From positions 72,588 to 136,587 of the forward strand of contig DIDS01000014.1 of the NCBI GenBank assembly GCA_002418265.1: a stretch of 64,000 nt of DNA. The letters are read 5' to 3'. Of the stretch, positions 2,098 to 62,824 are shown one piece after another. This DNA comes from Acidimicrobiia bacterium UBA5794 (lineage in GTDB: Bacteria > Actinomycetota > Acidimicrobiia > Spongiisociales > UBA5794). The number at the start of each line of letters is the position of its first letter. Within the stretch, counting starts at the first letter, position 1. The notes beneath the pieces were generated by a model. It was not told the DNA's origin. It did no database searches and saw only the letters and a list, made by a program, of their open reading frames with translations. The position numbers and the translations under genes are program-made.

Positions 2098-2489
2098 AAC
2101 CTGTTCCCCCTTCAGGGGGAACAGGCGAGTCTTCGAGCCATGGGTGCGTGCGAGCCTGCGAGCCCCGTCTCCCAGAGGGGAACAGGCGAGTCTCCGAGCC
2201 AAGGGACGGCCCCCCTGCGTCGCTAGCGCTCCGCGTCCCCCCGGCAGCCGGGGGGACGGGTAAGCACGCCAAGCCAAGGGGACGGGAAGAACCTCAACAC
2301 TGTTCCCCCTTCAGGGGGAACGGGCGAGTCTTCGAGCCATGGGGGCGTGCGAGCCTGCGAGCCCCGTCTCCCAGACGTCAGACGTCAGAAGCCCCCCTGC
2401 ACCTCGCTGCGCTCGGCGCGTCCCCCCGCAAGCGGGAGGACGGGAAGAAGAGCCCAACCCTGTTCCCCCTTCAGGGGGACGGTGTGGGC
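2098..2489. repeat. Roughly 200-bp unit tandemly duplicated (about 2.2 copies), carrying three perfect hairpins (CTGTTCCCCC-TTCA-GGGGGAACAG) and two copies of a GC-rich hairpin module; fills the convergent gap between the regulator and acnA
   Basis: Direct repeats at about 2103-2176 and about 2301-2376, with a third hairpin at about 2461-2484. Module variants lie at about 2211-2268 and 2391-2450. No coding potential. Confidence 0.8.
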
Positions 2490-7718: not shown

Positions 7719-7783
7719 ATTCGCTCCTTGGCTCGCCGTGCACAGCACGCTAGTCATTCATCGTCGGATCGAAGCGATGCAGA

Positions 7784-7812
7784 TGTCAGACGTCAGACGT
7801 CAGACGTCAGAT
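7784..7812. repeat. Heptamer tandem array (GTCAGAC)x4
   Basis: cagatgtcagacgtcagacgtcagacgtcagatc. Confidence 0.8.
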
Positions 7813-8372
7813 CACGAGTGTGTTGCTGAACCGGCGACGCCTTGAGCGCCGTGCGAGAAGAGGCTCGGTGGTTGTCGTATCTGGTCTTCGAGGAAGACGC
7901 CGATACCGATCGCCAGGAACACATCCCCGAGTGACAGCACAGCAGACGGCAGTGGGATCACATCCGCGAGAAACGGCAGCCGGGTCCCATTCGTGAGCAG
8001 TACGTGCTTGGCGTCAAGGGCCAGATCACCGGTATTCCCTGCGATCCCGGCCGCTTCGAGCAGCACCGGCATCCCACCGTTGAGGGCGATGACCGTGAAG
8101 TTCATGAGTATTCCGAGCCCGGCGAGCCAAAGGCCCGGCAGGTCACGGTTGAGCCAGATGAACAGGAGAAGCGGCAGATAGGAGATGAGCACAAGCGAGA
8201 CAGCGAGTTCGTTCTGGTCGGAGGAGACCCAACCCGATCCTGCAAGGATGATGAACCCGAGCGGAAGTAGCCACCACATGGTGACTCTGATCTCTGTCAG
8301 GTTTCGGAGCTTCCCTCCTCGCAGATACCCGACAGCGATCGATACGACCAATACGAGCGCCATCCACTGCAT
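7812..8372 (-). CDS. Polytopic membrane protein of unknown function
   Basis: 186-aa hydrophobic ORF with 5-6 predicted TM helices; no recognisable motif. Confidence 0.5.
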   Translation of the reverse strand: MQWMALVLVVSIAVGYLRGGKLRNLTEIRVTMWWLLPLGFIILAGSGWVSSDQNELAVSLVLISYLPLLLFIWLNRDLPGLWLAGLGILMNFTVIALNGGMPVLLEAAGIAGNTGDLALDAKHVLLTNGTRLPFLADVIPLPSAVLSLGDVFLAIGIGVFLEDQIRQPPSLFSHGAQGVAGSATHS

Positions 8373-8416: not shown

Positions 8417-8439
8417 AGTCTGACGTCGGACGTCTGACT
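8417..8439. repeat. Palindromic heptamer element (TCTGACG/GACGTCT) containing the stop codon of the upstream HD-domain gene
   Basis: agtctgacgtcggacgtctgactag. Confidence 0.7.
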
Positions 8440-9676
8440 AGAAGGTGATTTCGCCCCGGAAGACGAGAACGCGGCGGAGGGACGATCCGATGTGTGGATC
8501 GTATTCGTAGGCAGAACCCTGGTGGATGCGTTCGAGAGACTCGATCGGCGAGAGTCCCATCTCGATTCGTGCATCGTCGTATGCGCTTGCAACCTTGATG
8601 ATCTTGGAAGCGATCGGGACGTCAGGATCCATCGCGACCCCCGGTGAACGGTATGGGCGATGCTGCTGAGCAACGAGGGTTGACACGTGCTCAAGGTACG
8701 GTGCCTCTGCGATGATCTGTGAGCCCCATCGAGCAATGTCCTCATCGGTGTAGCCAGCCTTGACGATCGCAGGCTCATTCAACGTGATGCGACCGACATC
8801 GTGCATCAACGCGGCGTACTCAAGCTCCATCACCTCATTGGGGTGAAGCCCCATCTCCTGTGCAATGGCTATCGCCAGATCAGCGGTTCTTGTTGAATGA
8901 CCCGACGGAGCAAGGCCCGCGACCTCGGGAATCTGGGCGAGAGCGCGAATCGTCTGTCCATAGGTGACGCGCGTTGAGTGGTACCGCTCGAAGGCGAGAT
9001 GACCGAAGGCATACGGCAGGATCGCAACGGCGAAGGCCCACGCCCCCATGAGGGGCCACGTGAGACCAAACAGAGCACCAGCCGCGAAGATGGAGACAAC
9101 GACGGCCCAATCCTCAAGAGCGAGGAGCCATAGGTACCGCCCCGCGAGATCACTCCGTTCCAGGCCCACGAGTGCTGCCACGAGTGCCCTGATGACAAAC
9201 CACACCGTCCCAGCCACGGCAACGCTTGCAACGATCGTCCACGACGGATCGAGTGTGAGTTGGACATCAAATGCCTCGAACACGAATCGATAGGAGAATG
9301 CGTAGGCAGCCATCCCGATGGCATCCGTTAGAAAATCGCCGTCGGATCGGCTGGTCGTCATCGAAAGGCCACGCTCGACCAACCCAGTGGCCGCCAGACC
9401 AAGACAGATGGCTGCGCCGAGCGCAGCATGGTCGGGCACGAGGATTGCGGCACCAACCGCTGCCCCGATGCCGAGACTCAGATGTGACCCCGACGGGGCC
9501 GGAACCGTGATGATCGACACGACGGTGATCGCCGTGGCCCACACCAAGACCGGTAAGAACCAATCGATGAAGCCCACAGCTGTCTGACTCACACCGGAGA
9601 TCGTGAAAGCTGCGGCGCCAACCAGCAATCCAGTCCACGCCGCGAAGGTCAGCGTTCGGAGTCTGAGCTCAGCCAC
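8438..9676 (-). CDS. Membrane-anchored HD-domain protein, HD-GYP-like with degenerate GYP motif
   Basis: About 250-aa polytopic N-terminal domain. HD domain has HDVGRITL but QQHRPYRSPG in place of HHExxDGxGYP. GTG start overlaps the stop of the upstream paralog by 8 nt. Confidence 0.65.
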   Translation of the reverse strand: MAELRLRTLTFAAWTGLLVGAAAFTISGVSQTAVGFIDWFLPVLVWATAITVVSIITVPAPSGSHLSLGIGAAVGAAILVPDHAALGAAICLGLAATGLVERGLSMTTSRSDGDFLTDAIGMAAYAFSYRFVFEAFDVQLTLDPSWTIVASVAVAGTVWFVIRALVAALVGLERSDLAGRYLWLLALEDWAVVVSIFAAGALFGLTWPLMGAWAFAVAILPYAFGHLAFERYHSTRVTYGQTIRALAQIPEVAGLAPSGHSTRTADLAIAIAQEMGLHPNEVMELEYAALMHDVGRITLNEPAIVKAGYTDEDIARWGSQIIAEAPYLEHVSTLVAQQHRPYRSPGVAMDPDVPIASKIIKVASAYDDARIEMGLSPIESLERIHQGSAYEYDPHIGSSLRRVLVFRGEITF

Positions 9677-25735: not shown

Positions 25736-25836
25736 GTCAGACGTCAGACGTCAGAGAGCCCCCCTGCCCCTCGCTGCGCTCGGCGCGTCCCCCCGCAAGC
25801 GGGAGGACGGGAAGAAGAAGTCAGACGTCAGAAACC
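25736..25836. repeat. Composite intergenic repeat: (GTCAGAC)x3, GC-rich hairpin module, (GTCAGAC)x2
   Basis: gtcagacgtcagacgtcagagAGCCCCCCTGCCCCTCGCTGCGCTCGGCGCGTCCCCCCGCAAGCGGGAGGACGGGAAGAAGaagtcagacgtcagaa; sits in the divergent LCP/typA promoter region. Confidence 0.8.
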
Positions 25837-27694: not shown

Positions 27695-27706
27695 CCGCGC
27701 GACATC

Positions 27707-27812
27707 CGATGACCGATGACCGTACTCCGATGACCGTACTCTGAAATCAAGAGTCCAGCTCGTTGGACTCCACGTATCGGTTATCGGTAATCGGTAATCG
27801 GTAGTCGGACTT
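27707..27812. repeat. Long imperfect palindrome built from heptamer arrays (CCGATGA/CCGTACT on the left, ATCGGTT/ATCGGTA on the right) around a central hairpin; likely bidirectional terminator between typA and ppiC
   Basis: ccgatgaccgatgaccgtactccgatgaccgtactc...gagtccagctcgttggactc...tatcggttatcggtaatcggtaatcggtagtcgg. Confidence 0.7.
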
Positions 27813-33505: not shown

Positions 33506-33532
33506 TCTGACGTCTGACGTCTGAGATCAGAC
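33506..33532. repeat. Heptamer tandem array (TCTGACG)x3
   Basis: tctgacgtctgacgtctgagatcagac, immediately after the stop codon of the PG-binding lipoprotein. Confidence 0.8.
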
Positions 33533-34056: not shown

Positions 34057-34135
34057 TCAGAAGTCAGACGTCAGACGTCAGACGTCAGACGTCAGATGCT
34101 GTGAGCTGTGAGCCGTAAGCTGTGAGCAGCGAGTA
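34057..34135. repeat. Longest heptamer array: (GTCAGAC)x6 followed by (GCTGTGA/GCCGTAA)x5, upstream of aceE
   Basis: tcagaagtcagacgtcagacgtcagacgtcagacgtcagatgctgtgagctgtgagccgtaagctgtgagcagcgag. Confidence 0.85.
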
Positions 34136-41999: not shown

Positions 42000-42990
42000 C
42001 CAGCCGCTCATTGAGCTGACCGATCTGGTCAAGCAGTTCCCGGTCAGGGGTGGGGTCCTCCAGCGACAGGTCGCGACGGTCAATGCCGTCGCTGGTGTGA
42101 GCATGACGATCTCGCGCGGCGAGACCGTTGGGCTCGTCGGTGAGTCGGGATGCGGCAAATCCACCCTTGGCCGTTTGCTGACACGGCTGCTTGAACCGAC
42201 GTCAGGGAAAATCATCTTCGACGGCGCCGACATCACACACCTCCAAGGCAAGCAGCTCAAGCCGTTCCGGAAACGTGTCCAGATCATCTTCCAAGATCCG
42301 TACTCCTCCCTTGATCCACGGACCCAGGTCGGGAACTCGATCTCAGAGGGTCTCAAGCTCCACGGCATCGGGGACAAGGATGAACGGCGCGACCGAGTCA
42401 CCAAGATGCTCGAACTCGTGGGGCTTGAGGCACATCATGCGAGCCGATTCCCACACGAATTCTCTGGAGGACAACGTCAGCGGATCGGCATCGCGCGAGC
42501 TCTCATCCTCGAGCCCGATTTCGTTGTTGCTGACGAACCCGTGTCGGCGCTCGATGTCTCCGTCCAAGCCCAAGTCCTCAACCTGTTGAAGGAGTTACAG
42601 TCGGAGCTGGATCTGACACTGTTGTTCATCGCGCACAACCTCGCGGTGGTCGAGCACATCTCGGACCGTGTCGCCGTCATGTATCTGGGCAGAATTGCAG
42701 AAATCACCGACCGCGAGAGCCTCTACAAGAACCCGCTCCATCCCTACACCGAAGCATTGCTCTCTGCGATCCCGATCCCCGACCCCGATCGTCCCCGGAA
42801 TCGCACGATTCTCCAGGGCGAGGTGCCCTCCCCGATCGACCCACCATCGGGGTGCTTCTTCCATCCGCGGTGCCCGATCGCTGTCGAAGGTGTGTGCGAT
42901 GTCGAGGTACCCCAACTCGAGCAATCGACGACGAGCGCTGATCACCTCGCGGCCTGCCACGTCCGAACGGGCCGCCTGAGCCGGCTGTGA
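41992..42990 (+). CDS. ABC transporter ATP-binding protein (DppF/OppF-like)
   Basis: Walker [10 protein letters not shown], signature FSGGQRQR. The stop codon lies inside the first unit of the downstream heptamer array. Confidence 0.85.
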
Positions 42991-43020
42991 GCCGAAAGCT
43001 GTGAGCCGAAAGCTGAAATA
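42984..43020. repeat. 14-mer (two-heptamer) tandem array, (GCTGTGAGCCGAAA)x2 plus GCTGAAA
   Basis: gctgtgagccgaaagctgtgagccgaaagctgaaata. Confidence 0.8.
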
Positions 43021-44141: not shown

Positions 44142-44275
44142 ACCTTCAGGGAGGCGTGCGAGCCAGCGAACCCCGTCAGTCCGACGTCGGAAAGCCCCCC
44201 TGCACCTCGCTGCGCTCGGCGCGTCCCCCCGCAAGCGGGAGGACGGATATGGGAGAAAGCTGAAAGCTCTCTAAC
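44142..44275. repeat. Composite repeat: GCGTGCGAGCC...CCCCGTC box, short GACGTC element, GC-rich hairpin module, (AGCTGAA)x2
   Basis: ggaggcgtgcgagccagcgaaccccgtcagtccgacgtcggaaAGCCCCCCTGCACCTCGCTGCGCTCGGCGCGTCCCCCCGCAAGCGGGAGGACGGatatgggagaaagctgaaagctctc. This is nearly the same arrangement as 2341-2452. Confidence 0.8.
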
Positions 44276-45606: not shown

Positions 45607-46224
45607 TCACCTCCCAAGTCCGAAAGGATCATCTTGCCACTGGGTCGGTTTCTCACCGATCGTGATCATGACCGGTCCAGGCTCGCTGACCACGGCTGCA
45701 ACCTTTGTGCGTACGGTCTGGCGTCCGAATTGCCAATTCCGTACCAGCGTGCCAGTGCGCTTTGCTGAGAACTCCTCGTCGGATCCGTACCACAACGCCT
45801 CCGATGGACAGACGGACGCACACATCGGTTTCAACCCTTCGGAGGTGCGGTCGTAGCACATGTCGCATTTCATCATCTGGTCGAACGACGCAACGTACTT
45901 CGGGATGCCGAAAGGGCAGGCGTACACGCAGTTTGAGCACCCGATACATCGAGGCTTGAGGGAGGACTGGACGACACCAGACTCGTTCTGTTTGATTGCG
46001 TCAGCTGGGCACACCTCAGCACAGGTCGGGTCTTCACAATGCATGCACACGAGCGGGACGGTCTGTGTCGAAATCGCCCGATCAATCGTATCCAACTGGA
46101 TCAGGGAGACTCCGCGGTGGGTGTCACACTCGGCACAGGCAGCAACACAGGCACGACAGCCGATGCACCGGCTCTGATCGATGGCAAACACCGCCGTTGC
46201 CGGGTCATAGCCGCTTTGGATCAT
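45607..46224 (-). CDS. 4x[4Fe-4S] ferredoxin-type electron-transfer subunit (NrfC/HybA/DmsB-like)
   Basis: Four Cys clusters: [40 protein letters not shown] and CDMCYDR...CASVCP. No Tat signal and no TM segment. Confidence 0.85.
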
Positions 46225-48449
46225 TGGTCACCCTGCAACGTGAGGTCGCGGTCGTCGAGCAGGTCGCGGCGACCTGTGCCCTTCGCCACCTTGACGGCGC
46301 TGACCTTGTATTCCGGAATACCCGAGATCGGATCGATGGCACGTTGCGTCAGAAGATTTGCCGACTTGTCACTTGGCCAGTGATACGGGATGAAAACGGT
46401 ATCTGGTCGAATCGTCTCGACAACCTTTGCCGGAGCCACCATGGTTCCACGCCGCGAGGTGATGCGCACGATGTCGCCGTCGGTAACACCCAAATTGGTC
46501 GCAAGTAGGGGGTGCATCTCGCACAGGGGTTCGGGATACTGATCAACCAGTGCTCCGATCCTTCGAGTCTGTGTTCCCGACAGGTACTGGCTCACCACGC
46601 GCCCGGTCGTAAGGTACAGCGGGTAGTCCGAGTCAGGAACCTCGGCCGATTCGCGCCAAGGGGTCGGGATGAACTTCGCCCGCCCGTCCGGGTGGAAGAA
46701 CTTTCCTCCCTCATAGAGCCGTGGTGTTCCTGGATGTCCGATCTCGGGTGCAGGCCAGAACACACCCTGCTCCTTGACGACGCGATCCCACGTGATGCCG
46801 TAGTAGTCGGCAGTCCCGCCACGGGAGGCTCTCCTGAGTTCGTTGAAGATGTCTTCGGTTGTCTCGTAGTCAAAATACTGTTTGGCCCCCAGCCGATCGG
46901 CGATGTCGCAGATGATCTCCCAGTCCCGGCGAGCGTTGCCAGGCGGACTGACCGCAGCATTGATCTTGACGACCCGACCCTCAAGGGTCGTGACCGTACC
47001 TTCATCCTCCTCATGAAGCGAGCCCGGCAACACGACATCTGCGTGTTGGGCGGTCTCGGAGAGGAAGAAGTCGATGTTGACGTAGTAGTCGAGTTTCCCG
47101 AGCGCTTCTCGTGTGAAGTTGGCGTCGGGGAGCGAAACGAGCGGGTTGAAGCAGATCGACAGCAGACCCTTGATCCGACCCGCATGAATCTCATTCATGA
47201 TCTCCTGGGCCGTGAGACCCTTGCCGGGGAGCTGTGACTCTTCGATACCCCATACGTCGGCGATGAAGGCACGATCGTCCGGGTTCTCAATGTTGCGGTT
47301 GCCTGGCAACTGGTCGCATTTGTGGCCGTGCTCACGTCCACCCTGGCCATTGCCCTGTCCGGTGATCGTGCTCACGCCCGAGCCGGGTTTTCCATACTTG
47401 CCGGTCGCCAAGCCGAGATTGATGCATGCAAGAACGTTGTCGACACCCTTCGTGTGGTGTTCAATCCCACGTGCGTGCAGCAGCATCCCCGTCGCTGAGG
47501 TTCCCCAGATCTCGGCTGCTTCTTCGATTCTCGAAGCTGGCACCCCGGACACCCGCGCAGCCCAGTCAAGCGTTGCGCCCGACACGGCTGCTGCGGCCTC
47601 TTCGAAGCCGTTCGTATGGTTGTCGATGAAATCGTGATCGAGCCAATCGCGTTCAATGATGAGGTTGAACATGGCCGACAACACTGCGAGATCGGTACCC
47701 GGTCGGACGCCGAGAAATACGTCGGCGGTACGTGCGGCCGGGGTGACCCGGGGGTCCATGTAGATGAGCTTTGCGCCGTTGTCACGCGCACGCCAGATGT
47801 AGCTGGTTGTGATCGGTGCACATTCCGCGATGTTCGCCCCTGCCACGAACACGACATCGGTGAGAGGGATGTCTGACCAAGGGTTGGCAGCACGATCGAC
47901 GCCGAGCGCCTTCTTTCCAGCCGCACCCGCCGAGACCATGCACAAACGGCCGTTGTAGTCGAGGTTGGCCGTTCCGACGGCGACTCGTGCGAACTTGCCC
48001 ATGAGATACGATTTCTCGTTCGTGAGCGACACACCCGAAAGGACGGCGAAGGAGTCAGCCCCATGTTCGGCCTGGATCCGTTTGATCTCGGACGCGGTGC
48101 GGTCGAGTGCCGTTTCCCAGTTGATCTTCCTGAAGCCCCCAACCGCCGATTCGTCCCGCGCCAGTGGCTCGGTGAGTCGATCGGGATGGCTTCCTTGGAG
48201 ATACCTCTTCACCCCCTTGGGGCACAACTTGCCCTCGTTGAATGGGAAGTCGTATCGCGGTTCGAAACCGACGACCTTGTTGCCTGACACCTTCAACTTG
48301 ATGCCGCATTGCTGACCGCAGAAACAGCAATGCGTATCAACGACCTTGTCGATCTCGATCCCGGCGTCCCATCCCCCCGGTGGTGTACGGTTGAGATTCG
48401 GCCCATACGTGGCAATGAGCTGCTCTTCTGTGACGGGTGTCATCGCCAT
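46221..48449 (-). CDS. Molybdopterin (bis-MGD) oxidoreductase catalytic subunit, Nas/Nap-type nitrate-reductase-like, cytoplasmic
   Basis: N-terminal [4Fe-4S] motif [10 protein letters not shown]...GKLCPKG, Mo-ligand region [13 protein letters not shown], and [15 protein letters not shown]. The C-terminal MoCo-binding domain has [10 protein letters not shown]...IPYHW. No Tat signal. Start at MAMTPV (ATG 48449). Confidence 0.85.
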
Positions 48450-49498
48450 CAGCCGAACCCCCCAACCCGTGCCACTTGTGCCAATCCGACAACCCGACGC
48501 CTGCATTTGGGGCACACATCCTGATAGTGCTCTCCTGACTCGAACGAGTAGTCGAAGCCAACAGCAGGAAGCACCGCTTTGAGATCCTCCATCTGGAGAA
48601 CGCTTGCAAACCCTTCCCCGCATTGAATGCAGGTCTGCTCCCCGGTTGCCTCCGCAGCCTCCTTGTAGAACGACACCCCGATGTTTGCTGGTCGCTGGAA
48701 GATGTGGAAGAGCTTTCCGAACGGGATGTAGAGCAGCCCCAAAATGACCGTGAGGGCGTGCAGGTTCGTGATGAACGCGTAGAACTGTCCTCCCATCCAC
48801 AAACTGGATGCCGTCAGCATGAGCCCGGTGATCGATACCGCGAACAATCCGACCAAAGGTGCAAAGTCGGATGCCCGTTCGAGTGCAATAGCGCCGCGGT
48901 CACGCATCCGTCTGATCAAGAAAATCGCCACACCGGCGATGACGAGAAAGGCTGCGATGTTGAGCAGGTGGAACACCATGAAGCCGAAGAAGCCGCGCGA
49001 ATCGAATTGGATCGTTGCAAAGGGTCCGAGAAATGCTTCGTAGAGCCGTCCGCTCTCGTCCGCCGATTCGAAGTGGAGCCAACCGAACGTCAGGGGAAAC
49101 GTCACGAGCGCGGCGAGGACGCACCCCCAGAAAAGCAACTGGTGCGCAACCCACCTGACCTTGCTCCTCCCCGCGATGAAACGCTGCAGGAGGATGTTGT
49201 TGACCAGCTTTCCGACGAGGCCCACGGCATTTGACCCCCGTCGGCCTTTGGCCCGCATCGCCTCCCACCCGCGGCTGTTCAACATTGCCGTGGGAGGACG
49301 TCGAAGCCACACGATGTAGCGATACGCGGTCGCGAACACCGCAAGTACCGTTCCGAACAGATACGGGGCAAGTGCCGGATCGAACCATTGCAGACCACTC
49401 GAACCGATGTACACGCCAATGAGAACGAGGACCACCAGAATCGACCCAACGACGACCCCCCGTCGGTCGACTCTCGATGGTGTGGATGCAATCCCCAT
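48449..49498 (-). CDS. NarI-like (nitrate reductase gamma fold) membrane cytochrome b fused to a C-terminal CxxC...CxxC zinc-ribbon
   Basis: Five TM helices with conserved His residues, and C-terminal CIQCGEG...CPKCRRR. The stop overlaps the Mo-subunit start (TGATG). Start uncertain: ATG 49498, or GTG 49567, which would use the end of the repeat module as its SD. Confidence 0.7.
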
Positions 49499-49569
49499 GG
49501 AGAGAACCCTAGCTCTCAGCACCCAGCTCCCAAGCGGGAGTTGGTCCCCTTGTCCTTTGTCTCCCACAC

Positions 49570-49660
49570 CCGTCCTCCCGCTTGCGGGGGGACGCGAGGA
49601 GCGAAGCGACGATGCAGGGGGGGGCAGTCCGACTTCTGACTTCTGACTTCTGACTTCTGG
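49570..49660. repeat. GC-rich hairpin module (inverted orientation) plus (GACTTCT)x4 heptamer array
   Basis: ccgtcctcccgcttgcggggggacgcgaggagcgaagcgacgatgcaggggggggcagtccgacttctgacttctgacttctgacttctgg. Confidence 0.8.
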
Positions 49661-49661
49661 C

Positions 49662-51029
49662 TTACAGGCCTCGCATCAAGAACGCGGCAGCTTGTTCCCG
49701 TGTCAAGGTTTCGGTCGCTCCAAAGCTCCCATCCTCGTGGCCGAGGGCGATCCCGAGCTCGTGGGCAAGTTCAATCTTGCCCACAAGGGGATGATCGGGA
49801 CCGATGTCGGTGAAGTAGCCCTGATACTGGGGATAGTTGGTCTTGCCAAGGGCATCCATCAGCACCGAAACAAGGAAGCCCCGTTCCCCTGGCGAGCCGC
49901 CATCAAATGGGCCTCCAGCGCGAAGCGCTCCAATTTCAACAAGGTACTCGACCGATCCGACAAACCAGGCGTCTGAGGACACGTCGTTGAAGTACGCCCG
50001 ATACGACGGGTAACTCTTCTCGCCGCCGACGGCTCTGGCAATCATCGTCGCTGCCTGTGCGCGCGTAACCGTAGCCGCGGGACAGTATGAGTTCCAGGTG
50101 CATCCAATCGTTATTCCCCGCGCTGCCATCTGTTCGATCTGTGCTTCGGCGTACGAGCCGTCGTCGTCAACGAATGTGCCCTCATAGGTGCCAACACGCG
50201 ACGTATCCGATACCACGCCGTGAGGACCGAAATCGACCACCACATCATGGATTCCCGGTTCGGTGTTCCCATCCCACCAGACAGCCTCGGTGCCGGATCC
50301 GGTGTGCGTCCAAACGACCTTTCCGGACCCCTGGCGAATCTGGATCGTCCAGTTCACGATCGCATCGGCTTCAATGTTGAGCGTCCCACCTTGGGGGGCC
50401 GCGACCGTTTTGAACGATCCGAAGTCGACCGAGAATTGTGCATCGATCTGTTCGGCGGGAACCGCGGCGAGGAGGTAGGGATTCGGGTCCACGGGCGTGC
50501 CGTCGGGCTGGTGATACTCGAAGTGAAGATGAGAGCCAACGTTCTCGGCGTTGCCGGAGTCGCCGACCCAGCCAATGAGTTGTCCTGCCGAAACGCGGAC
50601 TCCGGGCGCAATGCCTTCGGCGATTCCCCAACCCGCACCGTCGTCGGTTCCGGGTGTGTCGTTGTTGAGGTGGATGTACCACGACTCCCAGCCATCGTCG
50701 TGTGTGAGAGCAATCGTGCAGCAACGATCGGGGTTCAGGTTGCCGGGATCCGAACTCCAATTGACGTACCGGATGACACCATTGGCTGCGGCGACAACCG
50801 GAGTCATCTTGGCTGCCATCAGATCGTCGCCTTCGTGGTAGCGGCTACAACCGGCCCGACATGCGCCAAAGTTGTCCGTGTTGTTGACCTTGCCGACGAC
50901 CGGGAAGACGAGGGGAAGATCCTGGGTAACTGCCTTGGCCGGTGGTGGAGCCAAGACGATGATGGTGGCAAGGGCTGTCAGCGCAACAATGGCCGCCACA
51001 GCCCCGAATTGCCTCTGGGAGCGGGCCAT
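49662..51029 (-). CDS. Secreted M23-family metallopeptidase with C-terminal S-layer-homology (SLH) domains
   Basis: Signal peptide, M23 motifs (HEGDDLMAA...HLHFEYH), and two or three SLH-like repeats (FNDVSSDAWFVGSVEYLVEIGAL; FTDIGPDHPLVGKIELAHELGIALG). Confidence 0.8.
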   Translation of the reverse strand: MARSQRQFGAVAAIVALTALATIIVLAPPPAKAVTQDLPLVFPVVGKVNNTDNFGACRAGCSRYHEGDDLMAAKMTPVVAAANGVIRYVNWSSDPGNLNPDRCCTIALTHDDGWESWYIHLNNDTPGTDDGAGWGIAEGIAPGVRVSAGQLIGWVGDSGNAENVGSHLHFEYHQPDGTPVDPNPYLLAAVPAEQIDAQFSVDFGSFKTVAAPQGGTLNIEADAIVNWTIQIRQGSGKVVWTHTGSGTEAVWWDGNTEPGIHDVVVDFGPHGVVSDTSRVGTYEGTFVDDDGSYAEAQIEQMAARGITIGCTWNSYCPAATVTRAQAATMIARAVGGEKSYPSYRAYFNDVSSDAWFVGSVEYLVEIGALRAGGPFDGGSPGERGFLVSVLMDALGKTNYPQYQGYFTDIGPDHPLVGKIELAHELGIALGHEDGSFGATETLTREQAAAFLMRGL

Positions 51030-54218: not shown

Positions 54219-54256
54219 TGTCAGAAGTCAGAAGCTGAAAGCTGTGAGCTGAAAGC
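54219..54256. repeat. Heptamer array (GTCAGAA)x2 and (GCTGAAA/GCTGTGA)x3
   Basis: gtcagaagtcagaagctgaaagctgtgagctgaaagcc. Confidence 0.8.
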
Positions 54257-54937: not shown

Positions 54938-56671
54938 ATGCTGATCCGTCTGCTCAGGAGCCACCTTGCACCGTACAAGCGCTGGATCATGATCATCGTT
55001 GCACTCCAGTTCGTTGCGACCGTGGCATCACTCCTGCTCCCGAGCCTCAACGCCGACATCATCGACAAGGGTGTTGTCACCGGTGATACCGACTACATCC
55101 TGCGCATCGGTTCGATCATGCTCGCCGTGTCTGCGCTTCAAGTCATCGCGTCAATCTCCGCTGTGTACTTCGGGGCAAAGACGGCGATGGCATTCGGCAG
55201 AGACCTCAGGAGCTCAATCTTCCGCAAGGTTGCGTCCTTTTCGACACGTGAGATGTCCCACTTCGGTGCCCCGTCGCTGATCACCCGCAACACGAACGAT
55301 GTCCAGCAGGTCCAGATGCTCGCCATGATGACATTCACGCTCATGGTGATGGCACCCATCATGATGGTTGGAGGCATCATCATGGCACTGCGTGAAGATG
55401 TCGGACTGTCATGGCTTGTGGCAGTCGCCGTTCCGCTGCTCGCCGCCATCCTTGCGATCGTGATCTCGCAGATGATCCCGGCTTATCGCAAGATGCAGAT
55501 TCGGATCGACACGGTGAACCGGGTGCTCCGGGAGCAGCTGAGCGGAATCCGGGTGCTTCGCGCTTTCGTTCGTGAGCCATACGAGACCGATCGATTCGAA
55601 AAGGCCAACCAAGAGCTCACGGACGTGTCGCTCACGGTCGGACGGTGGATGGCAGCAATGTTCCCCATCGTGATGCTCATCCTGAACCTGACGAGCGTTG
55701 CCGTGTTGTGGTTCGGCGGACACCGAGTCGACGCAGGGACAATGGAGATCGGTGCGCTTACCGCATACCTCACCTACCTCATCCAGATCCTGATGTCGGT
55801 CATGATGGCCACGTTCACGTTCGTGATGGTTCCGAGGGCGGCAGCGAGCGCCGATCGCATCGGCGAGGTCCTTGACACCGAATCGTCCGTCGTACCACCG
55901 GAATCGGGGATCACCGCGGTCGATCGACATGGTGAGGTTCAATTTCTCGATGTCGAGTTCACCTATCCGGGGGCGAGTGATCCGGTTCTTCGTGACATCA
56001 ACCTCACCGCACGAGCCGGTCAGACAACCGCAATCGTTGGATCCACCGGGGCAGGCAAGACAACCCTGATGAATCTGATACCGAGGCTCTTCGACGCAAC
56101 CTCGGGAACGGTGCTCGTCAATGGTGTGGATGTCCGAAACCTTGATCCCGACTTCCTCTGGAGTCGGATCGGGCTGATCCCCCAGAATCCATACCTGTTC
56201 ACCGGCACAGTTGCATCGAACCTGCGATACGGCAAACCGGATGCCACCGAAGCCGAGATGTGGCGAGCGCTCGAGATTGCCCAGGCGCGAGGCTTCGTCG
56301 AGGACATGCCCGAAGGCCTTGACGCACCGATCGCACAGGGTGGTACCAATGTTTCGGGCGGCCAACGACAGCGTCTTTCGATTGCCCGAGCACTGATCCG
56401 CTCCCCCGAGATCTACCTGTTCGATGACTCGTTTTCTGCGCTCGATCTTGCAACCGACGCTCGGCTTCGTGCCGCCCTCACCGCGGTGACGACGCAAGCA
56501 ACCGTCATCATCGTCGCGCAGCGGATCTCGTCGATCAAAAGCGCAGACCAGATTGTCGTGCTCGACGATGGCGCCATCGTGGGAATCGGAACACACGGTG
56601 AACTGCTCGAATCGTGCCAGACCTACGCCGAGATTGTCGAGTCGCAACAGATGGCCGAGGTGCCGCGATGA
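54938..56671 (+). CDS. ABC exporter, fused permease/ATPase (type I exporter, half-transporter 1)
   Basis: Six-TM domain followed by an NBD with Walker A GSTGAGKTTL and signature VSGGQRQR. Confidence 0.85.
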   Translation: MLIRLLRSHLAPYKRWIMIIVALQFVATVASLLLPSLNADIIDKGVVTGDTDYILRIGSIMLAVSALQVIASISAVYFGAKTAMAFGRDLRSSIFRKVASFSTREMSHFGAPSLITRNTNDVQQVQMLAMMTFTLMVMAPIMMVGGIIMALREDVGLSWLVAVAVPLLAAILAIVISQMIPAYRKMQIRIDTVNRVLREQLSGIRVLRAFVREPYETDRFEKANQELTDVSLTVGRWMAAMFPIVMLILNLTSVAVLWFGGHRVDAGTMEIGALTAYLTYLIQILMSVMMATFTFVMVPRAAASADRIGEVLDTESSVVPPESGITAVDRHGEVQFLDVEFTYPGASDPVLRDINLTARAGQTTAIVGSTGAGKTTLMNLIPRLFDATSGTVLVNGVDVRNLDPDFLWSRIGLIPQNPYLFTGTVASNLRYGKPDATEAEMWRALEIAQARGFVEDMPEGLDAPIAQGGTNVSGGQRQRLSIARALIRSPEIYLFDDSFSALDLATDARLRAALTAVTTQATVIIVAQRISSIKSADQIVVLDDGAIVGIGTHGELLESCQTYAEIVESQQMAEVPR

Positions 56672-58635
56672 CCAGCAGCGGCAAGAACGGGGAGCTCAAA
56701 ACAACCGAGCGTGTGGTGGCACAGGGAGGCCCCGGGCGTGGAATGGGCGGCGGACAGATCGCCCAGAAACCGTTGGCATTCAAGGAGTCAGGGAAGCGGC
56801 TGCTGAACAGGCTCAGACCGCAAGGGCTGAAGGTGGCCTTTGTGTTGCTCGCAGCCATTGTGAGCGTCGGCCTCGCATCCCTTGGTCCACGCGTCCTCGG
56901 ACGTGCGACCGACCTGATCTTCGCCGGTGCCATCGGGGGCCAGCTGCCTGCGGGAATGACGAAGCAACAAGTGATTGATTCCGCAACAGCTTCGGGTAAT
57001 CACAAGCTGGCGGACATGCTCTCAGGCATCGACATTGTGCCGGGCACCGGCATCGACTTTCGAGCGGTCGGCACCGTTCTTCTCATCGTCATTGTCCTCT
57101 ACGTCGGATCAGCATTGCTGTCCTTCCTCCAGGGGTACCTCCTCAACGACGTCGTTCAGGACACAGTCATGAAACTTCGCGCTGAAGTTGAGGACAAGAT
57201 CCACAAACTGCCGCTCAGCTACTTCGACCGCCAACCCCGTGGTGAACTCCTCTCGCGGGTGACCAACGACATCGACAATGTGTCCCAAAGTCTTCAGCAG
57301 ACAATGAGTCAGCTCCTCACGTCGCTCCTCACCGTCGTCTTCGTGGTGATAATGATGGTTTTGATCTCCCCTGTCCTTGCTCTGATTGCTCTGATCACCA
57401 TCCCGGTAACCATGGTCATTGCTGCCCTGATCATGACGCGGTCCCAGAAACAGTTCGTGACCCAGTGGAGACGGACCGGGACGGTCAACGCCCAGGTCGA
57501 GGAGGCATTCACCGGGCATTCGCTGATCAAGGTGTTTGGACGCCAGGACGAAGTGCAAGACGTGTTCGAGTCCGAGAACGAGCAGCTCTATGAGGCAAGC
57601 TTCTCGGCCCAGTTCCTCTCCGGCCTGATCATGCCGATCATGATGTTCATTGGGAATTTGAACTATGTGATCATCGCGGTCATCGGGGGACTGCGGGTCG
57701 CGAGCGGAACGATGAGTCTCGGGGATGTGCAGGCGTTCATCCAATACTCGCGTCAGTTCACCCAGCCCGTCACCCAGATTGCCTCAATGGTGAACCTGCT
57801 CCAATCAGGGGTCGCATCAGCAGAACGCGTCTTCGAACTCCTCGACGCCGAGGAAGAAGAGCCAACCGACCATCATCCACGAATGGTCGACAACCCTCGT
57901 GGTCGCGTGGTGTTTGAGGACGTCTCGTTCCGCTACGAGCCGGACCAGCCCCTGATCGAGGATCTGTCGATGGTGGTCGAGCCCGGACAGACGGTTGCCA
58001 TCGTTGGACCCACCGGCGCCGGCAAGACGACGCTCGTGAACCTGATCATGCGCTTCTACGAACTCGACGGCGGTCGTATCACCCTCGATGGTGTCGACAC
58101 CTCGCTCATGCCGCGTGCTGACCTGCGATCCCGGATCGGGATGGTGCTCCAGGACACGTGGTTGTTCAAGGGAACGATCCGCGACAACATCGCGTACGGC
58201 AATCCCGATGCCACCGAAGACGAGCTCCTTGAAGCCGCGAAGGCAACGTTCGTGGACCGCTTCGTCCACAGCCTTCCCGACGGCTATGACACCGTCATCG
58301 ACGACGAGGGGACAAACATCTCATCTGGTGAAAAACAGCTCATCACCATCGCGAGAGCCTTCGTCGCGCAGCCAGCACTCCTGATTCTGGATGAAGCAAC
58401 GAGCTCTGTTGACACGCGCACCGAACTGCTCGTACAGCACGCCATGGCAGCGCTCCGATCCGATCGAACGAGCTTTGTCATTGCTCACCGGCTGTCAACG
58501 ATCCGGGACGCCGATCTCATCCTTGTGATGGAGGAGGGACGCATCGTCGAGCGGGGGACCCATGGGGAACTCCTCGATCGCAATGGAGCCTATGCGTCGC
58601 TGTACAACTCGCAATTCGGCATGTCTGACGTCTGA
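56668..58635 (+). CDS. ABC exporter, fused permease/ATPase (half-transporter 2; heterodimer partner)
   Basis: Walker A GPTGAGKTTL and signature SSGEKQL. ATGA overlap with the upstream gene. The last four codons (MSDV-stop) lie inside the palindromic heptamer array. Confidence 0.85.
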   Translation: MTSSGKNGELKTTERVVAQGGPGRGMGGGQIAQKPLAFKESGKRLLNRLRPQGLKVAFVLLAAIVSVGLASLGPRVLGRATDLIFAGAIGGQLPAGMTKQQVIDSATASGNHKLADMLSGIDIVPGTGIDFRAVGTVLLIVIVLYVGSALLSFLQGYLLNDVVQDTVMKLRAEVEDKIHKLPLSYFDRQPRGELLSRVTNDIDNVSQSLQQTMSQLLTSLLTVVFVVIMMVLISPVLALIALITIPVTMVIAALIMTRSQKQFVTQWRRTGTVNAQVEEAFTGHSLIKVFGRQDEVQDVFESENEQLYEASFSAQFLSGLIMPIMMFIGNLNYVIIAVIGGLRVASGTMSLGDVQAFIQYSRQFTQPVTQIASMVNLLQSGVASAERVFELLDAEEEEPTDHHPRMVDNPRGRVVFEDVSFRYEPDQPLIEDLSMVVEPGQTVAIVGPTGAGKTTLVNLIMRFYELDGGRITLDGVDTSLMPRADLRSRIGMVLQDTWLFKGTIRDNIAYGNPDATEDELLEAAKATFVDRFVHSLPDGYDTVIDDEGTNISSGEKQLITIARAFVAQPALLILDEATSSVDTRTELLVQHAMAALRSDRTSFVIAHRLSTIRDADLILVMEEGRIVERGTHGELLDRNGAYASLYNSQFGMSDV

Positions 58636-58662
58636 CGTCTGACGTCGGAGGTCGGACGTCAG
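58623..58662. repeat. Palindromic heptamer array (TCTGACG)x3-ggaggtcg-GACGTCAG that supplies the stop codons of both convergent genes (ABC exporter on +, mobB on -)
   Basis: gtctgacgtctgacgtctgacgtcggaggtcggacgtcagtg. Confidence 0.8.
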
Positions 58663-59228
58663 TGGGCGGCGCTTGCGGTGGGGTGCGTGCAGGCGAGCCC
58701 CGCGATGAATCCGGCGATTGCCGACACGGCAGTGGGATCGAGTACGGGAACACTGACCGACCAACTCGCATCACTCACGATCGCAGAAAGCTCGGTCGGG
58801 TCGCATAGAAGATCGTTGCTGTTGTCGGCTCTGTGTACCTCGATCTTGGGGTAGGTCGATGACCGTCCTCCCTCGATGAGCACAAGGTCAGCGTCGGCCA
58901 TGTGTGCACAAACAACCGCGTCGATGTCGGGTGAGCGGCTCGGCGCCCGAAACACTGCGACCTGTACCGGACTCATCCCGACCACAACTTCGGCACCGGA
59001 ACGAGAGAAGCGATCGGTGTCCTTGTCTGCCAGGTCAAACGCACTGCTGCGATGGTGGTGCTTGATCACCCCAACTCGGAAACCGCGGTGCGCGAGATTC
59101 GGAACCAGTGCCTCGATCAAGGTTGTTTTTCCCGATCCCGACCGGCCAACGATGGCAACGACGGCCGGTGATGTTTCGCCGTACCCGCCGAACAAAGGAA
59201 AGATATCGCTCTGGCCATTTGACATCAT
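58659..59228 (-). CDS. mobB: Molybdopterin-guanine dinucleotide biosynthesis adapter protein MobB
   Basis: P-loop VAIVGRSGSGKTTL and MobB-type VIKHHH. Start at MMSNGQ with an AAGGAGG SD. Confidence 0.8.
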   Translation of the reverse strand: MMSNGQSDIFPLFGGYGETSPAVVAIVGRSGSGKTTLIEALVPNLAHRGFRVGVIKHHHRSSAFDLADKDTDRFSRSGAEVVVGMSPVQVAVFRAPSRSPDIDAVVCAHMADADLVLIEGGRSSTYPKIEVHRADNSNDLLCDPTELSAIVSDASWSVSVPVLDPTAVSAIAGFIAGLACTHPTASAAH

Positions 59229-59353
59229 TCCGCCTCCTTGGTCGTGGGCCGTAGCCTGCGAGTCCACACAGTAGCCATCGAGAATCTATTTATGAGTTGG
59301 AATCATATGAACTACGAAACTGTGCTAACGTACCACAGCGAACGGAGGCCCAT

Positions 59354-62300
59354 GTGAAAAAAGTTACAAGGCGTAAGTTTCTCAAAGGATCAGCCGTCGC
59401 TGCTGCTGGGGCATACGTCGCCACACAAGCATTTGACTCGGCCTTCACCTTTTTTCAGGCGGCACCCGGTATCGACAATCCCCTGGTGTTCTACCCGACC
59501 CGGGATTGGGAATCGATCTACCGCGACCAATACGCCTACGACGGATCCTTCCCGGTCGTGTGTGCTCCAAACGACACTCACATGTGCCGTCTTCGCGCTT
59601 TCACACGAAACGGTGTCGTCATCAGGCTTGAGCAGAACTACGACGGCGGTAACTACAAAGACCCCGCAGGTAACTCCTCAACGGTCGCCTGGAACCCCCG
59701 CGGCTGCCTCAAGGGTTACACGCTCCATCGCAGGGTCTACGGACCGTACCGACTCAGAACCCCGATGCTACGCGCCGGATGGAAGCAGTGGGCGGACGAC
59801 GGCTTCCCATCCCTTTCGGACAATCCAGAGTTGCGGATTCAGTATCGCTTCGACAGCCGCTCCGAGGACGAATTCATTCCGATGGAGACCGCCGAAATCG
59901 ATGACTACGTCGCGCGGGGTCTCGAAGCGATCGCAGCAACCTACTCCGGTGAGGAGGGCAGACGCCGGCTGATCGATGAAGACGGCTACGAGCCTGAGAT
60001 GCTCGAGTTCTGGGAAGAGTCAGGCGTCCGGACGATGAAGTTCGGATCGTCCCTGCCCATCCACGGTGTTGCCGGAAAGTTCGGTCTCGGCAGATTCGCA
60101 AACATGCTCTCCCTTCTCGATGCCAGGGTGCGTGGTGTGGGTGAGGATGAGGCTGTTGGAGCCAGGGAGTGGTCCGAGTACACGTGGCGAGGCGACCAGG
60201 CACCCGGCTTCCCGTTTGTGCACGGTGTTCAGGCCGCCGAAACCGACATGTCAGATCTCCGTCAGTCGAGGCTGCTCATCCAGGTGGGCAAGAACCTCGT
60301 TGAGAACAAGATGCCAGAGAGCCACTTCTTTCAGGAGATCATCGAGCGCGGCGGCAAGGTCGTGTCCATCGTTCCCGAGTATGGGCCCCAGGCATCCAAA
60401 GCCGACTACTGGATCCCAGTCCGAGCCGGACTCTCTGACACCGCTTTGTTCCTCGGTATTGCCAAGGCGCTGATCGATCGGCGGCTCTACGACACCGACT
60501 TCCTCAAGCGTTTCACCGACTTCCCACTCCTGGTTCGTCTCGATACGCTTCAGCGACTCCGAGCCGATGAAGTGTTTGCCGGATATACACCCAAGCTCGG
60601 TTCTGGCGCGGTGAGTTTCACGGTCCACGGCATGACAGCGGAGCAGTACGCACAAATCGGTGACCGGGTCGTCATGTCAGAACAAGGTGAACTGGTTGCC
60701 ATCACACGTGAGGACATTGGCAACCGGATGTCTGCCGCGGGGGTCGACCCCACGCTCGACTTCCGCGGCGAAGTCACGCTCGCCGACGGATCGACTGTTG
60801 AGGTTGCGACGGTGCTTTCGATGTACCGCGATCACCTCAAGGACTACGACCTCGACACCGTGATCGAAATCACCGGTTCGCCGAGGGATCTCGTTGAACG
60901 GCTCATTGAGGACATCGCCACGATCAAGCCGATGGGTATCCACGTCGGTGAGGGCATCAACCACTACTTCCACGCAACACTCCACAACCGAGCCGTCTAC
61001 ATGGTGTCGATGCTCACCGGCAACATCGGGGTCCCGGGTTCGGGCGTCAGCACCTGGGCCGGTAACTACAAGGGCGGTATCTTCCAAGCCGCCCCATGGT
61101 TCGGGCCGGGGGTCGGTGGCTACGTCAATGAGGATCCGTTCCACCCTCTTCTCAACGTGGACGATCGTTACACCGCCGAGACGACCAAACACAGGGTCCA
61201 TGGTGAGGAGACCTCGTATTGGGGATACGGCGACAAGCCGCTTGTCGTTGACACGCCAAGTGAAGGCCGCAAGGTCTTCACCGGAACGACCCACCTCCCC
61301 ACACCGACAAAGGTGATGTGGTACAACAACGCCAACCTGATCAATCAGGCGAAATGGGCGTATGAGCTCGTCCACAACGTGAATCCGAAGGTTGACATGA
61401 TCGTCGACCAACAGATCGAATGGACCGCCTCGGCGGAGAACGCCGACGTCATCTTCCCCGTCAACAGCTGGATGGAGTTCGAGACACTCGAAATGGCGGG
61501 CTCGTGCTCAAATCCATTCCTCCAGCTCTGGAAGGGAGGCATCGAACCCCTCTACGACAGCCGTGACGACATCGCCGTCTTTGCCGGTGTTGCCGGGGCG
61601 CTCACCGCCCACACCGGTGAACAGTTGTTCGCGGACTACTTCACATTCGCAACCGAGGGTCGACCCGAGGTGTACCTCGACCGCGTTCTTGCAGCCTCGT
61701 TCACCACCGAGGGTTACACCGTGGACGACATCATGAACGGGAACTACGGCGAACCCGGCGGTGCGCTGATGCTGTACCGCACGCTGCCTCGAATTCCTTT
61801 CTTCGAACAGGTACACGACGACGAGCCGTTCTCCACCGATACCGGCCGGATGCATGCCTATGTCGATACGCCCGAAGCCATCGAGTATGGCGAGAACATG
61901 ATCGTCCATAGGGAAGCGATCGAGGCAACAGCGTATCTTCCCAACGTCATCGTGTCGACAAGCCCATACCTGCGACCCCAGTCCTACGGCATAGCCCTTG
62001 ACGACATTGATGCGGGTCGGCGCCAGGTGAGAAACGTGATGATGCCGTGGAGCGAGGTCAAGGCGACACGCAATCCGCTCTTCGAGAGCGGCTATCAGTT
62101 CCTGTGCCTGACACCCAAATCGCGTCACTCGGTGCACTCGTCATGGGCAGTGACGGATTGGCACTGGATCTGGAACTCAAACTTCTCCGACCCGTACCGT
62201 GAGGACAAACGTCTCCCAGGCGTCGGCGATACCCAACTCCACATGAATCCTGACGATGCCAGAGCTCTCGGGATCGACAACGGCGACTATGTCTGGGTGG

Positions 62301-62824
62301 ATGCCAACCCTGCCGACCGACCCTTCACCGGATGGTCCGCAGACCATGAATATTCAGACGTGGCACGCCTGATGGCTCGGGTGTCGTACAACTTGGCGTA
62401 CCCCGCAGGGGTAACCATGCTCAAGCACGCCTTTTACATGGCAACACCCCTGACGGTCAAGGCCCAGAAGGAACGCCCGGACGGTCGAGCACTGTCACCG
62501 AATGGATACCAAGCGAGCTTCCGGCACGGTTCCCAGCAGAGCATCACCCGAGGCTGGGCTCCCCCGATGCACCAGACGGACAGCCTGTTCCACAAGAAGG
62601 CGGGAGGGATGACGTTCATCTTCGGCTTTGACGTCGACAACCACGCCATCAACACCTGTCCGAAGGAAACGCTCGTCAAGATCACCAAGGCAGAGTCCGG
62701 TGGGCTCAACGGGCAGGGTGCATGGGAACCGGGAACCACGGGTGAGAGCCCTGGGTCTGAGAACGCCGCGATGCAGCGCTACATCATGGGCGACTTCACC
62801 ACGGTGCAGGGAGGTACGCCATGA
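59354..62824 (+). CDS. Tat-exported NarG/NxrA-like molybdopterin oxidoreductase alpha subunit (periplasmic-Nar/Nxr/type-II DMSO-reductase lineage), 1157 aa
   Basis: Twin-arginine signal VTRRKFLKGSAVAAAGAYVATQAF. N-terminal NarG-like block ...CAPNDTHMCRLRAFTRNGVVIRLEQ...NPRGCLKGYTLHRRVYGPYRL aligns to NarG ([25 protein letters not shown]...PRGCPRGASYSWY). Size and collinearity with NarG. GTG start with a GGAGG SD. Confidence 0.8.
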   Translation: MKKVTRRKFLKGSAVAAAGAYVATQAFDSAFTFFQAAPGIDNPLVFYPTRDWESIYRDQYAYDGSFPVVCAPNDTHMCRLRAFTRNGVVIRLEQNYDGGNYKDPAGNSSTVAWNPRGCLKGYTLHRRVYGPYRLRTPMLRAGWKQWADDGFPSLSDNPELRIQYRFDSRSEDEFIPMETAEIDDYVARGLEAIAATYSGEEGRRRLIDEDGYEPEMLEFWEESGVRTMKFGSSLPIHGVAGKFGLGRFANMLSLLDARVRGVGEDEAVGAREWSEYTWRGDQAPGFPFVHGVQAAETDMSDLRQSRLLIQVGKNLVENKMPESHFFQEIIERGGKVVSIVPEYGPQASKADYWIPVRAGLSDTALFLGIAKALIDRRLYDTDFLKRFTDFPLLVRLDTLQRLRADEVFAGYTPKLGSGAVSFTVHGMTAEQYAQIGDRVVMSEQGELVAITREDIGNRMSAAGVDPTLDFRGEVTLADGSTVEVATVLSMYRDHLKDYDLDTVIEITGSPRDLVERLIEDIATIKPMGIHVGEGINHYFHATLHNRAVYMVSMLTGNIGVPGSGVSTWAGNYKGGIFQAAPWFGPGVGGYVNEDPFHPLLNVDDRYTAETTKHRVHGEETSYWGYGDKPLVVDTPSEGRKVFTGTTHLPTPTKVMWYNNANLINQAKWAYELVHNVNPKVDMIVDQQIEWTASAENADVIFPVNSWMEFETLEMAGSCSNPFLQLWKGGIEPLYDSRDDIAVFAGVAGALTAHTGEQLFADYFTFATEGRPEVYLDRVLAASFTTEGYTVDDIMNGNYGEPGGALMLYRTLPRIPFFEQVHDDEPFSTDTGRMHAYVDTPEAIEYGENMIVHREAIEATAYLPNVIVSTSPYLRPQSYGIALDDIDAGRRQVRNVMMPWSEVKATRNPLFESGYQFLCLTPKSRHSVHSSWAVTDWHWIWNSNFSDPYREDKRLPGVGDTQLHMNPDDARALGIDNGDYVWVDANPADRPFTGWSADHEYSDVARLMARVSYNLAYPAGVTMLKHAFYMATPLTVKAQKERPDGRALSPNGYQASFRHGSQQSITRGWAPPMHQTDSLFHKKAGGMTFIFGFDVDNHAINTCPKETLVKITKAESGGLNGQGAWEPGTTGESPGSENAAMQRYIMGDFTTVQGGTP

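Follow-up and report, generated by a model that had tools for sequence, protein, structure and literature searches.

Tandem arrays of seven-nucleotide (heptamer) units are known from several groups of bacteria. TAACTGA direct repeats have been described in Beggiatoaceae, cyanobacteria and Bacteroidetes; the forward repeats stop all three reading frames and hence lie at the ends of open reading frames (ORFs), with 13 overlaps reported (MacGregor, 2015; PMC4679880). In Xanthomonas and Nostoc, GGGAATC and GGGGA(T/C)T heptamers are found at most 50 bp from a stop codon or overlapping it (Rehm et al., 2015; PMC4692102), and that paper points to earlier work on cyanobacterial STRR heptamers and on a general excess of heptamers among prokaryotic repeats (Mazel, 1990; Mrazek, 2007; both as cited there). 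REP sequences, including those with a CGTC tag, are built differently: each consists of one imperfect palindrome, 20-40 bp long, that bears an unpaired GTAG or CGTC tag; they often occur as dimers and are linked to a RAYT transposase (PMC3733652). Here we describe an array of GTCNGAC heptamers in a 64,000-nucleotide (nt) stretch of the genome of Acidimicrobiia bacterium UBA5794 (contig DIDS01000014.1), which we call the window. The array fills the junction between two converging genes, that of an ABC exporter and mobB, and is most probably a heptanucleotide simple-sequence-repeat array, belonging to a lineage-specific family of arrays that is now dispersed over the intergenic spacers of this genome.

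The plus strand of the junction, from 58620 to 58669, reads c ATG TCT GAC GTC TGA CGTCTGACGTCGGAGGTCGGACG TCA GTG GGC GG. Tandem Repeats Finder places a period-7 array at 58623-58660 (unit GTCTGAC, 5.4 copies, 90% matches, score 55), whose full units, three copies of GTCTGAC followed by GTCGGAG and GTCGGAC, occupy 58623-58657. From 58623 onwards the sequence thus has the head-to-tail 7-nt unit in at least three copies by which heptanucleotide arrays are recognized. The unit is GTCNGAC, that is, the palindrome GACGTC plus one variable base. From the stop codon of the exporter gene to that of mobB there are 23 nt, all of which are array sequence. The junction is identical in five independent assemblies, including that of an Acidimicrobiia metagenome-assembled genome (MAG; GCA_027494075.1). 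The four further assemblies (loci L121-L124), which encode an identical exporter protein and derive from independent read sets, are 100% identical to the window over 8-17 kb, and the agreement of all five excludes an assembly artefact. An array is also present at the orthologous junction in four related genomes. The whole 64-kb window gave no match to Rfam at gathering thresholds.

The array reaches into the coding sequence of the exporter. An earlier note on this DNA had assigned the last four codons of the gene and its stop codon to the array; in the terminal sequence ATG TCT GAC GTC TGA, this holds for the last three codons (S-D-V) and the stop, which are units 1-2. A comparison of 120 exporter homologues showed a common core that runs to LYNSQF and is followed by unrelated tails of 4-25 residues; in the window the tail is G-M-S-D-V*. 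Homologues without the array continue for 10-25 more residues beyond LYNSQF, and longer tails are seen in the array-free loci L125, L126, L131 and L132. The exporter tail in the window is better seen as a truncation than as an addition, the array having replaced a non-conserved C-terminal tail.

The relatives that carry the array illustrate what changes within it do to the protein. In the closest relative (P0003, locus L001; 91% amino acid identity), the exporter ends GMSDVRRPTSDV* and its gene ends ATG TCT GAC GTC CGA CGT CCG ACG TCT GAC GTC TGA. Two of its units are GTCCGAC (T>C), by which two TGAs are lost, and the protein is seven residues longer (three units, 21 nt); the position of the exporter TGA in the window is CGA in L001. 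Loci L128 and L130 have four units against the five of the window and a gap of 16 nt against 23, with the same MSDV* end. Judged from these genomes, the longer protein of L001 and the MSDV* of L128 and L130 indicate that the exporter tail and stop are array-encoded and that a mutation in the array alters the protein. Four- and five-unit alleles share the MSDV* end and the same MobB end, and the array is located at or after the stop codon; the frame or promoter switching that defines phase-variable contingency repeats was not found here.

The opposite gene presents a different picture. The earlier note had argued that the C-terminus and stop codon of mobB are likewise formed by the array, through a self-complementary octamer, TGACGTCA, that would provide a stop codon on both strands. 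This octamer has no match anywhere in the window, and only the hexamer GACGTC is palindromic; pure (GTCTGAC)n contains stops on one strand, while its complement, (GTCAGAC)n, is open in all three frames. The mobB gene ends CAC TGA, with its stop in the last degenerate "unit", GTCAGTG, which matches GTCTGAC at 4/7 positions. All MobB relatives at 77-85% identity end ACTHPT(A/T)(S/T)(A/I)AH*, whatever array sequence comes next. The corresponding codons are CAC TGA in L001, L129 and L130 and CTC TGA in L128, and the sequence that follows CAC TGA is C GTCCGAC... in the window, A CTCAGAC... in L001 and G GTCGGAC... in L130, while in L129 a (GTCAGAA)n run comes after mobB, with a hairpin module beyond it. 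This conservation indicates that the MobB tail and stop are native and that the array merely adjoins them. The comparison of orthologous C-termini proposed earlier therefore has a divided outcome, with a repeat-derived tail in the exporter and a native AAH-type tail in MobB.

In one relative the gene calls at this junction differ. In L128 (6001-8607; ERZ25039603 contig_59187), the exporter is split into pieces of 175 and 484 amino acids (aa), and MobB is called as a protein of 227 aa, in which an upstream frameshift leads to read-through of the open (GTCAGAC)n strand with the tail ...LTSDFRRQTSDI... The split exporter and the long MobB are probably indel errors of that assembly.

The junction array belongs to a larger set. 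Tandem Repeats Finder detected about 15 period-7 arrays in the window, and strict arrays numbered seven for period 7 against zero for periods 4-6 and 8-11. The two-unit pattern GTCNGACGTCNGAC, with at most one mismatch, gave 21 matches at 10 sites against 0.58 expected from shuffled sequences. Seven arrays are of the GTCNGAC family (those starting at 2372, 7780, 8418, 25736, 33506, 34057 and 58623; Table 1); other heptamer units in the window are GCTGTGA, ATCGGTA, CCGATGA, AGCTAAC, GACTTCT (= GTCAGAA), AAGCTGA and AGCTCCC. Strict arrays occur in the window at about 3.4 per 22 kb, with one in L001 and two in L128, and no period-7 array was found in 22 kb each of L125, L126, L131 and L132, whose proteins are 78-85% identical. 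On these comparisons the period-7 family appears to be lineage-specific and patchy at orthologous sites. At the junction, the array persists even though mobB is only 77-85% identical and the DNA of L001 only about 85% identical to the window; it varies among relatives between four and five units, with substitutions mostly at the fourth base and the GACGTC cores kept.

The arrays tend to lie close to stop codons. Ten of the approximately 15 arrays overlap a stop codon or lie 0-11 nt from one, and the arrays are nearer to stops than would be expected if they were placed uniformly within the spacers that hold them (Fisher combined p = 2e-4). Between genes of the same direction, the array always lies against the upstream stop, with 18-45 nt left before the next start. 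Both array orientations occur at gene ends, and four arrays begin directly after a native stop in the open orientation. Stop-side placement fits selection that spares promoters and ribosome-binding sites. The ending of ORFs inside the arrays has a simple arithmetic cause: the unit contains TGA and 7 = 1 (mod 3), so that successive units bring the TGA into each of the three frames in turn, with a full cycle of 21 nt. The three frames of (GTCTGAC)n read V*, SDV* and LTSDV*, and any ORF that enters in this orientation ends after one, three or five codons (at most 6, 13 or 20 nt), here SDV*; no selected function is needed for this. In the open orientation, some long ORFs in other genomes extend 34-156 nt into or past the array.

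The same unit is found far outside the Acidimicrobiia. The exact 28-mer (GTCAGAC)x4 was present in more than 118 contigs of species-representative genomes, a frequency not calibrated against control heptamers, and the matches listed include Porticoccaceae and other Gammaproteobacteria, Acidobacteriota, Gemmatimonadota, Planctomycetota, Streptomyces, and Ilumatobacteraceae and other Acidimicrobiia. The 28-mer had no match in 2.9 million viral contigs. In 21 of the 75 arrays with enough flanking sequence among the matches listed, an ORF of at least 200 aa ends inside the array at exactly +6, +13 or +20. In 812 kb of the listed loci, period 7 accounts for 78 further arrays with other units, compared with 1-13 for periods 4, 5, 6, 8 and 9; since the excess is confined to period 7 and extends across units, array-rich genomes share a process that is specific to the period and not to the unit.

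Several further observations were made in these genomes. Dozens of (GTCAGAC)>=4 arrays per genome occur in the Porticoccaceae MAG JBJHDJ01, the Pyrinomonadaceae MAG JBGASE01 and the Pseudomonadota MAG101 JAYELS01, all of which are also rich in period-7 arrays of other units. Unrelated proteins of at least 200 aa (loci L003-L120, from other phyla) end V*, SDV* or LTSDV* on running into (GTCTGAC)n. A C-terminus of the form S/T-x-V-COOH resembles the class I PDZ-binding motif. A bias toward the TGA orientation at gene 3' ends, which a first count had suggested, was considered and dropped, as a recount by longest flanking ORF gave 34 versus 44 (p = 0.31), a count that is itself confounded by spurious long ORFs.

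We propose that the array arose in place, by slippage on native GAC GTC codons of the ancestral exporter tail. In L131 and many other homologues the tail starts A-G-P-D-V (CCG GAC GTC), with D-V at the same offset from SQF as TCT GAC GTC in the window, and we have moderate confidence that the array nucleated on these D-V codons. It takes up the whole convergent spacer at the expense of the exporter tail, and mobB uses its own CAC TGA. It mutates like any ordinary short tandem repeat, and a fourth-base substitution can lengthen the exporter by exact multiples of three units. The tendency of arrays to adjoin stops could reflect the part of a short spacer in which an insertion spares the promoter and ribosome-binding site. 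The hairpin that the array forms with the CTGAC end of mobB would result from the GACGTC palindrome; it may contribute to ending or stabilizing both transcripts and would not be what maintains the array.

Several observations weigh against this proposal. The D-V at a shared offset may be a coincidence, to which the reading frame alone gives a one-in-three chance. No copy-number polymorphism was seen within the species, where the same-strain assemblies are all identical. Several arrays in the window belong to a composite dispersed element, so not all of them need have originated in place. The periodicity and GACGTC cores kept across relatives hint at homogenization or selection. Lastly, simple slippage accounts neither for the period of seven nor for the recurrence of one unit, GTCNGAC, in phyla that are unrelated.

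The explanation that comes closest to slippage is that the array is kept by selection as a bidirectional terminator without a U-tract, or as a hairpin that stabilizes the 3' ends of the exporter and mobB transcripts. The earlier note had read the junction as a likely bidirectional terminator hairpin, and the predicted hairpin is indeed strong: the RNA fold of 58618-58668 has -30.8 kcal/mol on the plus strand (z -4.5 against dinucleotide shuffles) and -18.4 kcal/mol on the minus strand (z -2.5), which provides the GC-rich stem-loop of an intrinsic terminator. Its 12-bp stem uses the CTGAC end of mobB, and it is the sole structure-forming element in the 23-nt convergent spacer. Hairpins are also found in other convergent spacers, both in the window and in L126, and selection would account for GACGTC cores that are kept while the fourth base varies. 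The terminator part of the claim fares less well. There is no U-tract 3' of the stem on either strand, the next bases being GUGGGCGG (plus) and ACAUGCC (minus), and a terminator consensus scan returned no site at the junction. Among the array-keeping relatives, the fold is strong in L128 (-25.6 kcal/mol, z -3.3) and no better than shuffles in L001 and L130 (z -0.2 to -0.8); within the window, other arrays of the family (7775, 33498 and 49625) also fold no better than shuffles. A terminator would also be of little use in divergent spacers, in which some of the arrays (25736, 54220) are found. In Actinobacteria, hairpins without a U-tract are often predicted as terminators, and their activity is disputed. 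On this balance we regard selection for a terminator or stabilizing hairpin as unlikely, if still the most serious competitor of slippage in place.

Origin with, or through, a small mobile REP- or MITE-like element is a good deal less likely. It would make the array a remnant of, or a target for, the composite dispersed element, which is present in four copies of about 100 nt, and in each of them a run of the GTCAGAC type immediately precedes the same hairpin core; the run and hairpin module after mobB in L129 would also suit it, as would heptamer arrays beside other repeats in other bacteria (PMC4679880). At 58623-58662, however, the spacer is array only, with no hairpin module, and its first unit coincides with the native D-V codons; no transposase was linked to the elements here, and the viral contigs lack the pattern. 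Very unlikely, in our view, is a binding platform with one protein per 7 nt, such as a cold-shock-type single-strand binder or a GACGTC recognizer, acting on mRNA 3' ends or on local DNA structure. The strict period of seven across many different units in one genome and the conserved GACGTC cores are what such a platform would lead one to expect, and one-per-unit binding of heptamer direct repeats by CspB has been raised before (PMC4679880), but the diversity of units speaks against a sequence-specific binder, and close relatives with the same genes lack arrays. A chance heptamer run or a mis-assembled repeat, which only the short length of the array could recommend, has a negligible probability in view of the identical assemblies, the four related genomes that have the array and the excess of two-unit matches over shuffles.

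A broader idea is that (GACGTCN)n arrays are not neutral products of slippage but a recurrent 3'-end module across phyla, kept or repeatedly re-created for a three-frame stop, a GACGUC hairpin and perhaps a 7-nt binding platform. The persistence of the array at the exporter-mobB junction despite the divergence of mobB, the conserved GACGTC cores and the fact that Gammaproteobacteria, Acidobacteriota, Gemmatimonadota, Streptomyces and Acidimicrobiia all have this unit would be consistent with such a module, which we nevertheless consider improbable. If it were true, a recurrent (L)TSDV-COOH tail would be written onto unrelated proteins.

The junction array also has a wider bearing. The comparison of related genomes shows directly how a short tandem repeat is able to remodel the end of a conserved protein, first by truncation and then, through a single base change, by an extension of exactly three units. 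It also calls for caution in annotation, as stops and short tails beside such arrays come from the repeat.

The remaining arrays of the window are set in varied contexts (Table 1). Two of them had been cited earlier as further cases of a stop codon inside a repeat. The stop of the OppF-like ABC ATPase gene is indeed one: its TGA, at 42988, lies within the first unit of the 14-mer repeat, which grows out of a native CTGAGCC, and the tail RTGRLS is common to relatives, so that this gene parallels the exporter in a repeat that starts from native codons. The other case does not hold, since the TAG of the HD-domain gene (8438-8440, minus strand) adjoins its array with one shared base and is not inside a unit. 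Between the converging bipA-like and rotamase genes, each of which is followed by CCGAT(G/T)A units in its own sense, the inverted arrays and central hairpin give a 113-nt fold of -51.8 kcal/mol (z -5.8). This spacer measures 118 nt with its arrays in the window, against a plain 47-nt hairpin without arrays in L126 (3759-3807), which has CCCGATAG in its loop.

The composite dispersed element has copies at 2340-2445 (+), 25715-25812 (+), 44150-44248 (+) and 49568-49670 (-). Its parts are a left module (GGCGTGCGAGCCnGCGAnCCCCGTC), a heptamer run of the GTCAGAC type and a conserved module, about 55 nt long, that ends in the hairpin GTCCCCCCGCAAGCGGGAGGACGGG; this hairpin has four matches against zero expected, and the run is always directly 5' of the module. 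A CGTC-tagged REP family was considered for the hairpin modules and rejected, as its defining features do not fit. The first copy lies in a repeat-packed convergent spacer of 390 nt (2098-2488), in which the hairpin CTGTTCCCCCTTCAGGGGGAAC occurs three times, together with a duplicated block of about 200 nt and a G/C-rich hairpin module in two copies. On the minus strand, 46221-49498 is one long ORF with an N-terminal membrane part (48800-49498), and the spacer before the peptidase M23 gene is 49499-49661. At 54220-54256, in the divergent spacer upstream of a TetR gene, there is a mixed array of two GTCAGAA units followed by GCTGAAA / GCTGTGA; the corresponding position in L001 (3386-7606) has no array and two extra genes, of 331 and 990 aa, without Pfam matches.

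The mobB gene is divergent from a conserved operon, at 59297-62824 and downstream in the window and also found in L001, L121 and L126, that encodes a 1156-aa molybdopterin oxidoreductase with a Tat signal, a 4Fe-4S subunit, a Nitrate_red_del chaperone and an EB_dh (ethylbenzene-dehydrogenase-like haem) subunit. In L126 and L127, which are without mobB, the ABC exporter gene is directly upstream of the molybdopterin oxidoreductase operon.

Table 1. Genes, stop codons, heptamer arrays and predicted structures at the junction and elsewhere in the window.
Feature	Position	Strand	Remarks
ABC exporter (ABC_membrane + ABC_tran, subfamily B)	56668..58635	+	ORF; Pfam PF00664/PF00005; 655-aa product in public assemblies
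ABC exporter TGA stop	58633..58635	+	within array unit 2
Heptamer array	58623..58660	+	GTCTGAC x3, GTCGGAG, GTCGGAC, then GTCAG(TG); last merges with mobB terminal CACTGAC
Predicted hairpin	58625..58662	+	12-bp stem CUGACGUCUGAC / GUCGGACGUCAG plus inner 4-bp stem; RNA fold
mobB TGA stop (TCA on + strand)	58659..58661	-	native, at array edge
mobB (molybdopterin-guanine dinucleotide biosynthesis protein B)	58659..59228	-	Pfam PF03205; converges on ABC exporter
(CAGACGT)x2.6	2372..2389	+	within composite dispersed element
(GTCTGAC)x4.6	7780..7811	-	starts directly after TGA of DUF5317 gene 7812..8372
GTCTGAC GTCGGAC GTCTGAC	8418..8438	+	adjoins TAG of HD-domain gene 8438..9676 (-)
(GTCAGAC)x2.9, hairpin module, second short GTCAGAC run	25736..25833	+	divergent spacer
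Two inverted arrays (CCGATGA)n, (ATCGGTA)n around central hairpin	27706..27808	.	between converging bipA-like and rotamase genes
(TCTGACG)x2.7	33506..33524	+	3 nt past stop of PG_binding gene
(TCAGACG)x5.7 then (GCTGTGA)x4.3	34057..34127	+	directly after TGA of flavin reductase gene
14-mer (2x7) repeat GCTGTGAGCCGAAA x2.3	42977..43015	+	contains TGA (42988-42990) of OppF-like ABC ATPase (Pfam)
(GTCAGAA)x4.7	49631..49663	-	adjoins TAA of peptidase M23 gene 49662..51029

Among known systems, intrinsic terminators and REP/BIME hairpins between converging genes resemble the junction in that the spacer contains a GC-rich hairpin with the potential to act on both transcripts. The array differs from them in having no U-tract, in consisting of tandem direct repeats and not of one palindromic unit, and in a hairpin that is no better than shuffles in two of three array-keeping relatives. 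It also lacks the unpaired GTAG or CGTC tag, and we saw no link to a RAYT transposase, an association that was not searched for. We rejected the REP class for the array, which is a direct tandem repeat with CGTC inside the paired GACGTC. A literature search for the literal repeat sequence returned only an unrelated primer match, and no paper mentioning the GTCNGAC unit was found.

The heptamer repeats are much closer. Like the TAACTGA repeats (PMC4679880), the GTCNGAC arrays are tandem, mostly intergenic, present in many sets per genome and absent from close relatives; in both, the stop-carrying orientation overlaps only the last codons of an ORF (<21 nt) and the reverse orientation is open. 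They differ in a GC-rich unit whose palindromic GACGTC core gives hairpin potential, in their Acidimicrobiia host, and in position, since most 'Maribeggiatoa' sets lie just upstream of start codons whereas the window arrays lie beside stops. With the GGGAATC type (PMC4692102) they share intergenic over-representation, a location near or overlapping stops and some inverted pairs between converging genes; the G-rich units form G-quadruplexes, whereas GTCNGAC is without G-runs and its structural potential is that of a hairpin. The cyanobacterial STRR heptamers and the general heptamer excess, as these are summarized in the same paper, resemble the window in a period-7 excess, several unrelated units per genome and the lack of a known mechanism; host phylum and units differ from those of STRR, and membership is a matter of shared architecture only. 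The junction array has every architectural feature of the known heptamer-repeat class, and what sets it apart is its unit, its host phylum and its preferred position. It is thus a new example of a kind already known in other bacteria, not a new phenomenon, and it extends the bacterial heptamer excess, which is poorly understood, to another phylum and to a unit that is GC-rich and palindromic.

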